Shown piece by piece: positions 18,065-60,329 of a DNA stretch of 64,000 nt. The stretch is from Stylophora pistillata (lineage: Eukaryota): the NCBI RefSeq assembly GCF_002571385.2, contig NW_019218012.1, positions 127,682 to 191,681 on the forward strand, read 5' to 3'. The notes beneath the pieces are model-generated. The model was not told where the DNA came from, searched no databases, and was given only the letters and a program-made list of their open reading frames with translations. The position numbers and the translations under genes are program-made. Every line of letters starts with the position of its first letter. The stretch's first letter is position 1.

Positions 18065-18769
18065 GCTGCACGTTGTGGTTGTAATACACTAATAACCTAT
18101 CAGTTAATTATCAGTTGATCAGTTGCCACGGCATTTTCCAAGTTGTATTTAGCAGGTACTTCATGAGAACGTGTTGAGCATGAGCTAGCCTTAAGTGTTT
18201 TATTATCAAGAAACCGGTTCAAACACCCTAGTAAATATCTCAAAATTTGCCAAAGGGAGTGCGTGAAGGCCTCGTATATTCCGCGAACTAAACTTCCACT
18301 GCTTATGACCATAGATAGTGACAATAGCATCAAATCCGATAGAAATTCGGGTACTGAGGAGGTTTCAATATTTATCTCAACGGTTACAACAGTTGCTTAA
18401 AAGTGTAGACTTAAATATTCGAATAACCCTTTATTTTACAAAGATCTGGTTTAACTGTACAAAAAAGAAAACAAATGTAAACAAAACGAAGCGAAACGAA
18501 AAAACTACAGTGAAAACATACTTACAAGATTTGTGGACTCGAGGAATAAGTGAATAAACTAGTGAGAAAACAATCGAACATTCAAAACGAATTAATGACC
18601 TCTGCAAGTACGAGCACATGGTTCATCCCATAATATTTGACAATTTAAATGACGCAATTGTACCGGTACCAGTCCTACGCAGACTGAACACGAGAAACAA
18701 AGTAAACAATTGTAGAACGTTTTGTAACTTACAAAAAGCATGATACAAGTAGCTTGGAAAGTAAATATA

Positions 18770-19375
18770 TCTTCTTAGACGTTTTGTTGTGTAGTATCGC
18801 TGAGTATTTTTACGAGTTGTGCCGTATTTTGACAAGCTCGTAGAGCGAGTCAAAATACAAATAACGAGTAAAAATACTCGGCGATACTACACAACAAAAC
18901 GACTAATAAGTTATTTATTATCCAACACGCCAAACTATTATTTTCTGTGCATGTACGGGCGAATTTCGCGGATATTTCTTTACGGGGAGTGCGTGACAGA
19001 ATTATGCGAAGCGGAATTAAAAGGTCAGGGACGCGTTGTCATGTTGCTGTTTCCATTTTCTTCAATAAATGAAGAAATTTCCTGATCGTCTAGCTGTTTT
19101 TCTTCGTTCGATTCATCTGATAAACTTGGATCTATATTTGCCAGCCATTCTGAATCTTCGACGTCGGAAATATGAATCAAATTGTCCGTCATTGTTTTTC
19201 TTCGTAACTACAATCCAATTCTTCGCTTGCGTGATGCGAGAAAACTTGTTTAACCAGTACTCTAGAGTACAAATACCGCGTGATATTTGTACTCGTCTAT
19301 GGCGTTATTTGTACTCTACGAAGTGTAGTTACATAATAAATGCTTTTAAAAGTGAAATATCTATTGGTTAGGCAG
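18770..19375. mobile_element. Hairpin-headed non-autonomous element inserted in block A copy 1
   Basis: Internal inverted repeat CGTTTTGTTGTGTAGTATCGCTGAGTATTTTTAC / GTAAAAATACTCGGCGATACTACACAACAAAACG. Absent from the paralogous position in block A copy 2. Confidence 0.55.
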
Positions 19376-19787
19376 AGTGTAACGTTTGTCAAATGTACTA
19401 GTTATTATTACTTTAGAGATTTAGTTTTGTGATTTTATGAAAATATAACACTAACATTTAACTCCTTTAAATGAGTCTTAAATTTTCACCCATTCCTCTC
19501 GTGGTGTTGCAAAAATTAAATAAGTCAAATAAATTAAGTAACCTGCTCTTTATCGGCATATTGCCCAGGTTTTTCACTCGGGTGTCTGTGATGTTAACCT
19601 TCATCTCAATGCAGGCTCACTCACACTGAGCCATAAATCGAGTCCATCTCCTGAAAACAGCAACGGCTAATGATCAGGTATGCGTAGACGGATCAATAGG
19701 GACCTTAAAAGGTCAGGGCGGCAACGCCGAGGAAGACTTCGATTAAAAAATAAATTTATACCTTTAATTAGAATTTTGGCTGCATGN

Positions 19788-56690: not shown

Positions 56691-58638
56691 GAGTTTGGCG
56701 CCAAGACCGGGTTACCCGCGTCCGGCAACTCGCTGGCTAACTTTCGCAAGGTAAGATTTCAGGTGTGAAATTGTATACTAAGTAGCTTGATCTTCTTCGA
56801 ACTTAATCCAGCAGTCTCCAGCCAAGTATTAGAATAGGTCAAAACAGTTTTAATATTGCCATTATATTTGTTTAAGTTGGGAAAATAATTTGAAAAAATA
56901 CCCATAATCGGTTCATTTCGAGTGGCATTTGTTGCAGCTGCATAAACTAACTCATTTAGGCACACATGAAACGTACCACTTACGTTACGACACTAAAATT
57001 TTGACTGTCGCGTGCACTGCGGGCGCAACCACCGTATGCAAGGCAACTTAAGTCTGAAATAGATTAAGCTTTTCACAGGTCCCTTGAATTTGCTTTGCTT
57101 CGTTGTTACTCAAAATCATATACTTGTTTGAATCAATTTCACTTTTCTAAATTAACAATATTGTAATCTCCTTGTAATTTTTATTTCCAACCTCCTTGAT
57201 ATACTCTAATATTGTCTACAACCACTCGACTCGAATAGTTTTTTTGCTACATTCGGGTGGTGTATTTCTTTCACTTTTGTATTTATTTATTTGTTTCTTT
57301 CTTAAGTAATAACATTTGTAGTTTTTAAAGTGGAATAAAAAAGTGTGTGCTAATTTGGAGGAAACTGTAATTGATAAAGTCCGAGACTCTCTGGGAGGTT
57401 TTGGGAACTTTTTTAGTTTTGTAGACCTAAACCGCGTAAATGGAGTTTACGAATACCAAGGAAACTTCAGAAATTAAAGTGCCGAGAATAATCCAACCAA
57501 ATGAAGCAACGATGCGAATAAATATCTTATTTCTTGAACAAAATCACAGTGGCGTGTTACTGTACGTACCATATGGTAAAATCTTGAACTCCACACCAAA
57601 AGTATTCCTGAATTTCTTTTAGCTTGCCTCATTCTGATTGGTCAATAAGACTCGTCTAACCCTCTCAGCCAATCAAATGCAAATTTTAAACTCAATCGTT
57701 CTCCCGCCTCAGAGGTGATTTGCTCGTTTTACTTGACAGTTGGCTCTGATTAACTTAGCTATTTTCGTCTGCTTTGACTGGCTTCTGTGCTTACTTTGGT
57801 TTTGGGTAAGATACGCTCTGTTCCGTTGACACAGACCTCTCTTTTGCAACGAACTGATGTAATTCGTCCAACGCTCGCCAAAGGTGTCAAAACTTTACAG
57901 TACGAATTCTGGTGAGCTGCAACAGAAGCCTAGGTTATACACTCCTGGCTACATGTTAAAATGAAAGTTTCTCTGATTAGCTGCTGCCTTCGCGCAAAAT
58001 TTCGCCTCCAAACAGCAGTCAATCAGCGGGACTTGGTGATGCTTTTAGTCGTCGCCAAACTAATGAAATCTTAAGGTCAGTGCAGTAAGACATCTGGAGC
58101 CGGAAAGGTGAAAACTACTGCGCTAAAGGAAGGGGAAGTGCAAAATATTAATCATATTATATGGAAAAACTCTTGTAAAGTAAGAAAACCTCAGAATAGA
58201 TTGACGAACGTTAAGGATAGACAAGATTGAAAAGGATTGCAAGCCACCAATTGAAGATTTACATTACGTGTTTCAAAACGCACAAAAGAATGTCTAGTCT
58301 TCTCGCAAAGTTGTGCGGTCTTCTTTCTTCGTATTAAGAGTAATTTTTTATAGCAATATCTTTTATCAGAGGCGAAATGTAAAGTTCCAAACGAAAATAT
58401 AATCTTAGTTTAATCCTTTTCGTTCCGTCTCCACCACAAAACGTCGTTTTTTTAAGTTGACGGTGCTCGACCAAAAACTAATCCATCTTTGGAAGAAAGG
58501 GTTTCAAAGTAAAACAACAGGACACACCTTGAAGATATCAAATAACCCTTGGTCATTTTAAGCTGTACAAGATGGCTTAAAAGAGTAATGAACACGAAAT
58601 TTATCGAACAGAGCTTTGTTCTATTCTTCCGGGTTCTC

Positions 58639-59732
58639 CTAACATTCTTTCAGCCAAGCATGTTCAAGGCACTGCGCGGCTGTAGCCCGTTTATCCGTGT
58701 TGAAGTCGAGCATTGGGAGCAGAAACGCTGAGAATTCCATGGCGTCCTTCTCAGGCCACTCGTACTTCTCACGAAGAACATCATAAAGTCCCCTGGAAGA
58801 GAAGGACATGAAAACTTAAAATCTGTAGCTCTGAGGACTTTCCTCGAAAACAAAACATTAGCCTTAGTCTTAAAGGACCCCATAGAATTCCCTTATTTGA
58901 ACATCGACGATCAACAATTAGAGCTTGTAACTTAAAGTACTTGGTTTGGTGATTCAGAATAATTTAAAATGGAACAATCATATTGAATATATAGTCACCA
59001 AGGCCTCTAAACGCCTTCACATACTCCCAGTACTCCGTCGAGGGGGCGTTGAGATTATTGATCTAATTACTATTTATACTGTCTTGTTAAGATCTTTACT
59101 GGAATATTGCTGTGTAGTATGGCACCACGCCCTAGCAAATATATATTGCCTAAATGCAGGACAGAAAGATTGCGTCGTAGTTTTTTACCAAGTACTAGCC
59201 TAGTGTTTAATAATTATTAGACTTTTAAAGTCTAATACGCCCATTTAACTTGTATAAGCATAAATGTATTTGTAATTTTATTATATAACCCATTGTAACC
59301 CAGTCCCTCTTTGATCAACTTTTGTAATTTTTTATTGTTGTACGATTGTAACAACATTGTAATTCAGTTTAGCTGCGATGATGGTGGAATTAAACTTTCT
59401 TTCTTCTTTCTTCTTACTTCTTTCTTCTTCTTCTTCTTAAAATGCCTCCTACCTAGTTCAAGGTTTGAGGAGTCACCTTTCGTCAAGGCGCATGACGAAG
59501 GGCTGACGCTCGAAACGTCAGCTATAAACTCTTTACGGAGGCCAATTTACTCCATCTGTTTGCTGTTTGACAGCGTGTTCGTTGCTGTTTCCCTAAAACA
59601 GAGATTGTAAACAATTGAACAGGGTCAGAGTAAAACCTACCTTCTTGTTGAAGAAATCTCTGGAATATTTCTCGGAAAGAGCTATGTGTCTTGGAATTTT
59701 CCCAAGAAGTTCAATAACGTGAGCTAAGTGAT
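58639..59732 (-). pseudogene. SRPK (SR protein kinase) 3' exons, copy 2: 59732-59641 and 58792-58639
   Basis: [31 protein letters not shown] and GLYDVLREKYEWPEKDAMEFSAFLLPMLDFNTDKRATAAQCLEHAWLKEC*, with AG/GT boundaries. The small intervening exon and all upstream exons were not found in the window. Confidence 0.8.
58860..59400 (+). mobile_element. 5'-truncated L2-like LINE 3' fragment
   Basis: LGLVIQNNLKWNNHIEYIVTKASKRLHIL..L...RSLLEYCCVVWHH; ends at a (TTC)n-like tail. Confidence 0.75.
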
Positions 59733-60329
59733 CTGTAAAATAAACAAATTCAATAACAAATTTGACAATGACCACCAAACGCCGAGTCGGTCATTGATGA
59801 TCAATGTAAAAAGATATCATTACTATAAGTTCCCCACGAAAGAAAATTTTTCAACTAAGTGTCTAAATGTACTCTGGGATGGCAAGGATTTTATCGGAAA
59901 ACGCTCTGTGATTAATGGAAAAATTTGCACGGTCTTTCTCGACCAATCAGGTGCAAAACTAAAATCAACCACGTCTGGTCACTAGCGTTTTCCCGCGCTC
60001 AAGACGATTTCCTGTGGTTACTTTGAGTTGTAATTAGTTCCTTGTGATATTTCCCCTTCTTATGATTGGCATTTTGAATTTTTTTCCAACTAGTATCGAT
60101 CGCAAAACAATATGTCACGCTAGCGGTTTCATGACAATACATCAATCCGCGAATGGAAAGTCTCCCGTTTTCTAAGTTTACCCGAGACTTTAAAAGGCTT
60201 CCGTTTTCTTCATGACTGATTATGACCAATACCGGGAATACCAGGCTCACCCTTTTCTCCTTTACTAGCGCCATCTCTTTAATCTAATTGGCAGTTCGTG
60301 TAACCCTCTATATATGTTCATCAAAGTTT

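Follow-up and report, generated by a model that had tools for sequence, protein, structure and literature searches.

Predicted Eco29kI-type nuclease genes are more diverged than their duplicated flanks in a tandem array of the coral Stylophora pistillata

The DNA analysed here (the window) is a stretch of 64,000 nucleotides from the coral Stylophora pistillata (NCBI RefSeq assembly GCF_002571385.2, contig NW_019218012.1, positions 127,682 to 191,681 of the forward strand); positions are counted from its first letter. As judged from its sequence, the locus is an old array of nuclease genes beside a POGLUT1/rumi-like gene. Three open reading frames (ORFs) on the plus strand, N1, N2 and N3, match the RE_Eco29kI profile (PF09517) with 51.8, 56.3 and 47.3 bits at a cut-off of 30.8. 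N1 and N3 occupy equivalent places in two tandem units, and divergence over their coding tract is roughly six times that of the duplicated flanks around it.

The array and its duplicated units

According to the original prediction, a unit of block A, a nuclease gene, block B and the 3' exons of an SRPK gene occurs twice. Self-BLAST of the window bears this out: 18077-44244 and 44446-60003 are collinear, A1 pairing with A2, the two parts of B1 with B2, and the SRPK penultimate exon and intron of one unit with those of the other (Table 1). Only 20% of the sequence of unit 1, and 44% in the case of unit 2, is non-coding DNA that can be aligned. Pooled over 4,363 aligned columns, the distal flanks differ at p=0.153, a Jukes-Cantor distance (JC) of 0.171, and the single blocks A, B and SRPK segment each lie at JC 0.14-0.22 between the units. 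By these distances, the flank blocks and the SRPK fragment are of one shared age. Neither unit has intact SRPK pieces; these differ by 11-13% and can be taken as near-neutral markers. The last-exon remnant of copy 2 matches residues 290-320 and 333-380 of the SRPK1 chain, residues 321-332 being absent.

Blocks A and B could instead be transposable elements that were inserted independently beside genes of unrelated age. The units do contain repeats. In two DNA-like sequencing runs of other samples, where copy number was judged from contig depth, which is not true copy number, depth was very high around 45.6-46.3 kb and around 49.6-50.9 kb, and a palindromic high-copy element (24552-24887/50215-50559) has been inserted in each unit at a place that does not correspond to the other. 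Core block A, the flank block whose depth could be resolved, had a depth of 55-90, similar to that of N3 (60 and 93), whereas the repeats reached thousands to millions. Moreover, both units keep A, gene, B and SRPK exons in the same collinear succession, and B ends in SRPK exon sequence. With collinear blocks of one age and a low-copy block A, the units represent a tandem segmental duplication, and the independent insertion of high-copy elements, a weak point foreseen in the prediction, is barely credible.

On the 5' side of the genes, homology between the units ends abruptly at 24126/52689. On the 3' side, the JC distance is at least 0.33 beside the gene, then 0.27, and 0.16 further away. The immediate 3' flanks had been called patchily similar, and they indeed align with a score of 110, compared with 53 for the best of 100 shuffles; their JC of 0.33 is a lower bound, as the aligner yields 59% identity on shuffled DNA. 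Single contigs from the two DNA-like runs (52453-54780 and 52458-54708) extend from the end of block A across N3 into the 3' flank of this gene.

Two relics, N0 and A0, follow directly after the POGLUT1 gene. N0 matches the family protein P0073 with 73% identity over 26 aa (tblastn against the window, E=8.5e-7), and A0 aligns to block A with a local score of 272, the best of 20 shuffles reaching 134 (BLAST part 16907-17140). N2 is joined to an L2 fragment inside the SRPK remnant of unit 1 and is likely a pseudogene. It is present in both DNA-like runs, where 7 of the 9 variants listed alter or otherwise touch the protein, a pattern in keeping with a pseudogene. Its contig depth (38956-40283) was about 1.5 times that of N3 in both runs, a hint that one more N2-like copy exists.

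An internal duplication of block A is present in both units. Block A1 also holds a perfect 649-nt inverted repeat with a 10-nt spacer (19788-21095), whose 100% identity suggests that it arose very recently or is a fold-back artefact of the assembly. Minus-strand ORFs of block A (23137-23466 and 48744-49121) were considered as a conserved gene and rejected: they are broken in the third copy, and the two copies are 65% identical, as expected without constraint. A short tandem repeat (44245-44330) marks the unit junction, where contigs from other runs break. Outside the array, a cation-efflux (zinc transporter-like) gene lies head-to-head with POGLUT1 (4184-7537, minus strand). To the right of the SRPK remnant, a degraded AT-rich element (60321-63100) contains a Pox_A32 ATPase fragment and further broken frames; we take it to resemble a relic of the Maverick/adintovirus type.

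Table 1. Features of the array and of its duplicated units (window positions; LINE, long interspersed nuclear element; RT, reverse transcriptase)
Feature	Position	Strand	Remarks
POGLUT1/rumi-like gene, left anchor of the array	8937..14685	+	PF05686; PDB POGLUT1 E=2.5e-30; 10 exon stretches compared
N0, 5' remnant of a fourth gene of the family	15518..15650	+	stop and frame break
A0, older orphan copy of block A	16322..17227	+	~67% in gapped alignment
Block A1, upstream flank of unit 1	18077..24126	+	JC 0.14-0.22 to A2; internal duplicate 21726-22160/22505-22901
N1, uninterrupted 303-aa ORF	28549..29460	+	predicted helical N-domain and Eco29kI-like GIY-YIG domain
Immediate 3' flank of N1	29518..29953	+	weakly alignable to 54376-54753
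Block B1, proximal	30419..32271		JC 0.27 near the gene, 0.16 farther away
LINE insertion splitting B1	32272..36533	+	endonuclease and RT frames; contains assembly gap; B1 halves adjoin in unit 2
Block B1, distal, with truncated SRPK last exon and 3' region, copy 1	36534..37113	-	JC 0.16 to 58141-58712
RT fragment fused to the broken 5' end of N2	37979..38877	+	95.6% identical to 34829-35728; PF00078
N2, truncated nuclease copy	38878..39759	+	without ~39 N-terminal codons; remaining 292 codons open
SRPK penultimate pseudo-exon with intron flanks, copy 1	43798..44244	-	GC donor
Block A2	44446..52689	+	internally duplicated, A2a/A2b JC 0.11-0.13
N3, 333-aa nuclease gene	53059..54060	+	
Block B2, continuing into SRPK last exon	57352..58712		
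SRPK last-exon remnant, copy 2	58639..58791	-	first 12 codons gone, LINE-like DNA instead
SRPK penultimate exon with flanks, copy 2	59549..60003	-	exon 59641-59733, 1 base shorter than copy 1

Divergence of the genes and of their flanks

The N-terminal halves of N1 and N3 had been noted as hard to align, and the proteins, 41% identical overall, share 30% of residues in the N-half and 53% in the C-half. Greater divergence of the genes than of the flanks, the central claim of the prediction, holds at synonymous sites. Synonymous divergence (dS) between N1 and N3 was 0.95 by NG86 (bootstrap 0.72-1.28) and 1.21 by GY94 maximum likelihood, and it peaks over the coding region. A dS of 0.17, which would equal that of the flanks and, with dN/dS well below 1 throughout, would have refuted the prediction, was rejected (p=9e-29 overall; for the C-half alone, with dS 0.96, p=4e-14). 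A model-free count of four-fold degenerate sites in codons with matching first two bases gave the same picture: 20 of 43 differ, against the flank rate of 0.153 (p=1.3e-6), and in the C-half 11 of 28 (p=0.002).

Non-synonymous divergence (dN) was 0.54-0.56, and dN/dS was 0.45, below 1 (p=4e-5). The prediction had offered diversifying selection on duplicates of the same age as one cause of the excess, and dN alone is threefold the flank divergence; positively selected site classes were also found in relatives (see below). But the excess is synonymous, dS being higher than dN and far above 0.17, and selection on amino acids does not raise dS sixfold. This explanation of the N1-N3 pair is therefore very improbable. 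Positive selection does not raise dS, and thus the coding tract would be older than its flanks.

N1 and N2 show a different picture. Their N-halves have a dS of 0.21, which is at flank level (p=0.49), with differences at 3 of 15 four-fold sites, whereas dS in the C-halves is 0.74; equal dS of the two halves was rejected (p=8e-5). Thus the pair is a mosaic of a young N-half and an old C-half. Since the N-half of this pair is at flank level, coding sites at this locus are not inherently faster.

The latter point bears on the possibility that genes and flanks are of the same age, and that synonymous change is faster in the genes or that misalignment and multiple hits make dS too high. The N-half alignments are gap-rich, alignable flanks are biased to slow segments, and between corals the dS of the nucleases is above that of POGLUT1. 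Yet four-fold sites still differ at the high proportion given above, also in the C-half, and the dead SRPK exons are only slightly different. Methylation-driven hypermutation as the cause of high dS was rejected by the CpG observed/expected ratio of 0.86-0.89. We consider this possibility improbable, if less so than selection on same-age duplicates. The dS of the N1-N3 C-half (0.96) is close to that of POGLUT1 between this coral and the coral of metagenomic locus L004 (0.88, 353 codons).

Relatives in another coral and the origin of the mosaic

A metagenome scan yielded 17 loci from 55 candidate stretches. Loci L001-L012, L014 and L015 are coral-like and were treated as one lineage, which may span species; L013 is protist-like, and L016 and L017 are bacterial restriction-modification loci. 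In L002 and L004, POGLUT1 exons that match those of the window are followed by a family nuclease 4 kb downstream, and the array position is therefore common to both corals. Upstream flanks of the pairs L001-L002 and L002-L005 lie at JC 0.15-0.19 and the genes at dS 0.41-0.79 (L002-L005: 0.75-0.79). N- and C-halves differ in dS in 7 of 8 pairs, which were hand-picked from 36 and are non-independent. Set aside as unreliable were one N1-N3 N-half fit with dS at the boundary, the N-half fits of N1 and N3 against L001, and the null fits of L001-L005 and L003-L007.

Among the copies of the other coral (9 sequences), site model M2a was better than M1a in the N-half (p=1e-4) and in the C-half (p=6e-4); on gap-free columns the same comparison was less strongly supported (p=0.043, 0.046 and 0.001). 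The N-half statistic of 18.2 was reached by none of 76 mosaic neutral simulations. This argues with moderate strength for diversifying selection among these copies.

Many copies of the other coral are broken or carry acidic repeat insertions. The latter are in-frame expansions of widely varying length (L005:2033-2225, L006:1565-1827, L007:1393-1694, L009:892-1460) inside the GIY-YIG domain, between the helix of the catalytic His and the next strand. The protist-like locus suggests that the family is not confined to corals; it holds P0102, a 572-aa member (L013:3915-5678), beside a leucine-rich repeat gene and a kinase-like gene. The bacterial locus L016 (4585-7761) contains one C5 methyltransferase and two Eco29kI-like genes, with an opposite-strand ORF between the two that is presumably Vsr-like. 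Five loci on viral contigs match the catalytic core only. A quick tree (62 rows, 3 dropped for lacking the motif), which was not used for claims of origin, placed the eukaryote-type rows on one side (support only 80) and separated N1 from N3, which grouped with other members (support 93).

The reading we favour, with moderate confidence, is a younger tandem duplication (~0.17) whose coding tract was swapped for an older array member by recombination. The whole unit would have been duplicated at a distance of about 0.17, and the coding tract would have been exchanged for an older member of an ancient nuclease array, either by a double crossover or by a long conversion. Selection may then keep the divergent variants, although it is not required for this single swap. 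The mosaic halves of N1 and N2 support this reading, as do the same synteny and the same pattern of genes older than their flanks in the other coral, and the relics N0 and A0 indicate that older donors were at hand at the locus. The prediction had proposed, as its second explanation, an old gene duplication with later homogenisation of the flanks. Its first part stands, as the gene is the older component; yet one duplication with an exchanged tract fits better than gradual homogenisation, because the age is the same for A, for B and for the SRPK fragment.

The main rival is that N1 and N3 derive from ancient alleles of one locus under balancing selection, with flanks that recombination had mixed, and that a heterozygote underwent one unequal crossover which brought both onto one chromosome. 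A single event would likewise explain why A, B and the SRPK piece are equally old, and the 3' divergence falls with distance from the gene. The POGLUT1 last exons of L002, L005 and L011 are only 0.03-0.12 apart and are followed by different nucleases, and haplotype-diverse gene arrays are known in Acropora, as the accessible text of PMC12314368 describes. However, the alleles would have to be nearly as old as the split of the coral lineages (an extra dS of ~0.8); L005 and L011 are short and unphased, and may be tandem units with a duplicated exon or come from other species; and paralogous donors were available, as N0, A0 and N2 make plain. We regard this rival as serious but unlikely.

A homing-like process could also swap the cassette between similar flanks, a cut copy being repaired from another. 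The GIY-YIG active sites are intact, and repeated mosaics and broken copies are found in two corals. But no target site, empty allele, intron or intein context was seen, and homing would homogenise the genes rather than preserve deep variants. Mosaic arrays also form without nucleases, as in the plant nucleotide-binding leucine-rich repeat (NLR) and the major histocompatibility complex (MHC) clusters. Homing thus appears highly doubtful.

Several observations weigh against the exchange of an older coding tract. A donor copy flanked by N1-type sequence did not turn up, though there was no whole genome to search. Homology breaks off abruptly at the 5' boundary, and two short segments are all that defines the 3' gradient. 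According to the main text of PMC10236652, corals seem to undergo gene conversion only rarely. The junction 44277-44446 was unbridged among the contigs listed, which stop at the repeat at 44277; the contig comparison covered the stretch without N1. Non-coding DNA of an age of dS 1 would be unalignable, so that ascertainment partly explains why no alignable piece is older than the gene, and the old tract may include unalignable flanks too. The N-half of the N1-N2 pair has a dN/dS of 2.3 (p=0.016 in 1 of 9 tests, not significant after correction). In the other coral, the N-half dS of L001-L005 (0.22) is near that of the flanks (0.09-0.15), and hence the pattern is not present in every pair. The dS of the nuclease C-half between corals is 1.5-3.1, compared with 0.88 for POGLUT1, which fits either old paralogy or a faster rate. 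Finally, 3 of the 76 neutral simulations passed the nominal threshold of 5.99, two of them with statistics near 17.

The proteins and their possible role

By its sequence, the family is a GIY-YIG nuclease of the Eco29kI type and not a restriction-modification system. The catalytic residues of N1 and N3 (Y193, Y217, R228, H232, E264, N276) correspond to Y49, Y76, R104, H108, E142 and N154 of Eco29kI, are kept in N2 according to the alignment, and are conserved in 46, 45, 42, 44, 44 and 45 of 46 rows, respectively. In the accessible text of PMC1952068, all six residues are placed in the active site of Eco29kI, five of them shown by mutation. The model of N3 (predicted local distance difference test 93) has Eco29kI (3mx4) as its best fold match (Foldseek E=2.8e-5; VIA Z 14.9, root-mean-square deviation 4.4, 163 residues aligned), and PADLOC gave REase_II matches. 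The proteins are thus predicted to be active GIY-YIG DNases.

In other respects they differ from R.Eco29kI. They lack its extended DNA-binding loop after the second strand (described in the part of PMC3384342 available to us), about 16 Eco29kI residues being unmatched in the N1 alignment, and they add a helical N-domain of ~150 aa. The Eco29kI specificity for CCGCGG is probably lost; the motif occurs once in the window, which is uninformative. Unlike the bacterial loci L016 and L017, the coral genes form an animal tandem array with no methyltransferase beside them: POGLUT1, remnants of SRPK and pieces of LINEs surround them (11 of 51 ORFs scanned; an intron-split gene could escape).

A profile search gave 518 representatives at E<=0.001 and 35 at 1e-30, the top matches sharing the N-domain or the C-terminal motif of the family; the organisms named among 30 proteins checked were S. 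pistillata and Desmophyllum pertusum. With a profile of the N-domain, all 11 longer matches also carried PF09517. The N-domain alone had no usable match in the ESM Atlas, and its fold gave generic helical matches only (best Z 9.2); both results show neither novelty nor absence. This fast-evolving domain would serve as a module for regulation or sensing.

Over its whole length N3 equals the last 333 aa of the S. pistillata protein XP_022795150.1 without a difference, and a relative of N1 (P0001, 98%) was found in Logan contigs. N1 appears to have lost a short C-terminal tail (29457-29510). It ends directly after the conserved YHI motif, and the bases after its stop resemble the tail of P0002. 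The final helix is absent from N1, N2 and P0002 and kept in N3 and most relatives.

In two raw RNA runs (2% and 6% of reads), N3 was covered at a depth of 1-3 on one strand, i. e. it is transcribed at a low level. In the same reads, the depth was 0 for N2 in both runs and 0 in the bin of the database-predicted first exon of N3 (51381-51444, inside block A2), with no joint listed. RNA runs X8-X20 contain 24-36% of the words of 51300-57800.

The evolutionary pattern itself is already of a known kind. As in the genes of the red and green opsins in humans, described in the accessible text of PMC3924837, the coding region including its synonymous sites is more diverged than the flanks. Both the exchange of an older tract and the capture of ancient alleles resemble this case. 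In contrast to the opsins, the divergence peak in the coral spans the whole gene at a dS of about 1, and the flanks are 15.3% diverged rather than near-identical, so that the exchange would be old and not ongoing. With the immune-type arrays of corals, as far as PMC10236652 and PMC12314368 describe them, the locus shares an old tandem array in a stable position, birth and death of copies, LINE fragments and diverse haplotypes. Those arrays, however, consist of NACHT, TIR, TPR, CHAT and glycosyltransferase families; the main text of PMC10236652 contains no match for 'nuclease', 'restriction' or 'Eco29', and its supplements could list PF09517. The locus would show old sequence exchange in tandem arrays of a group where, according to that text, conversion is rare.

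Restriction enzymes are regarded as prokaryotic. The occurrence of a bacterial defence family in aquatic eukaryotes resembles that of eukaryotic homologues of anti-phage proteins (OLD-like, ATP nucleosidase and Tiamat, as described in the sources available to us), from which the coral family differs in being another enzyme class. No description of the family was found in the literature searched, which left most subscription papers and all supplements uncovered.

A role of the nucleases in defence against foreign DNA can be proposed tentatively, the basis for it being the ancestry of the enzyme, the dynamics of the array and the signals of selection. It is rather unlikely, though conceivable, that corals keep restriction-enzyme-derived DNases as an innate defence, with variants as old as the split of the coral lineages and with reshuffled N- and C-domains. 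As part of this reading, and with as little probability, a sensing N-domain and a cutting C-domain would be reshuffled, much as in resistance genes that form an allelic series. Should the enzymes be no more than array members in decay, what remains is a mosaic duplication of an ordinary sort. An expressed animal family with an intact restriction-type active site and a new partner domain is a candidate for DNA-targeting immunity in corals, and the array position common to two coral lineages, together with the signs of diversifying selection, adds to this candidacy.

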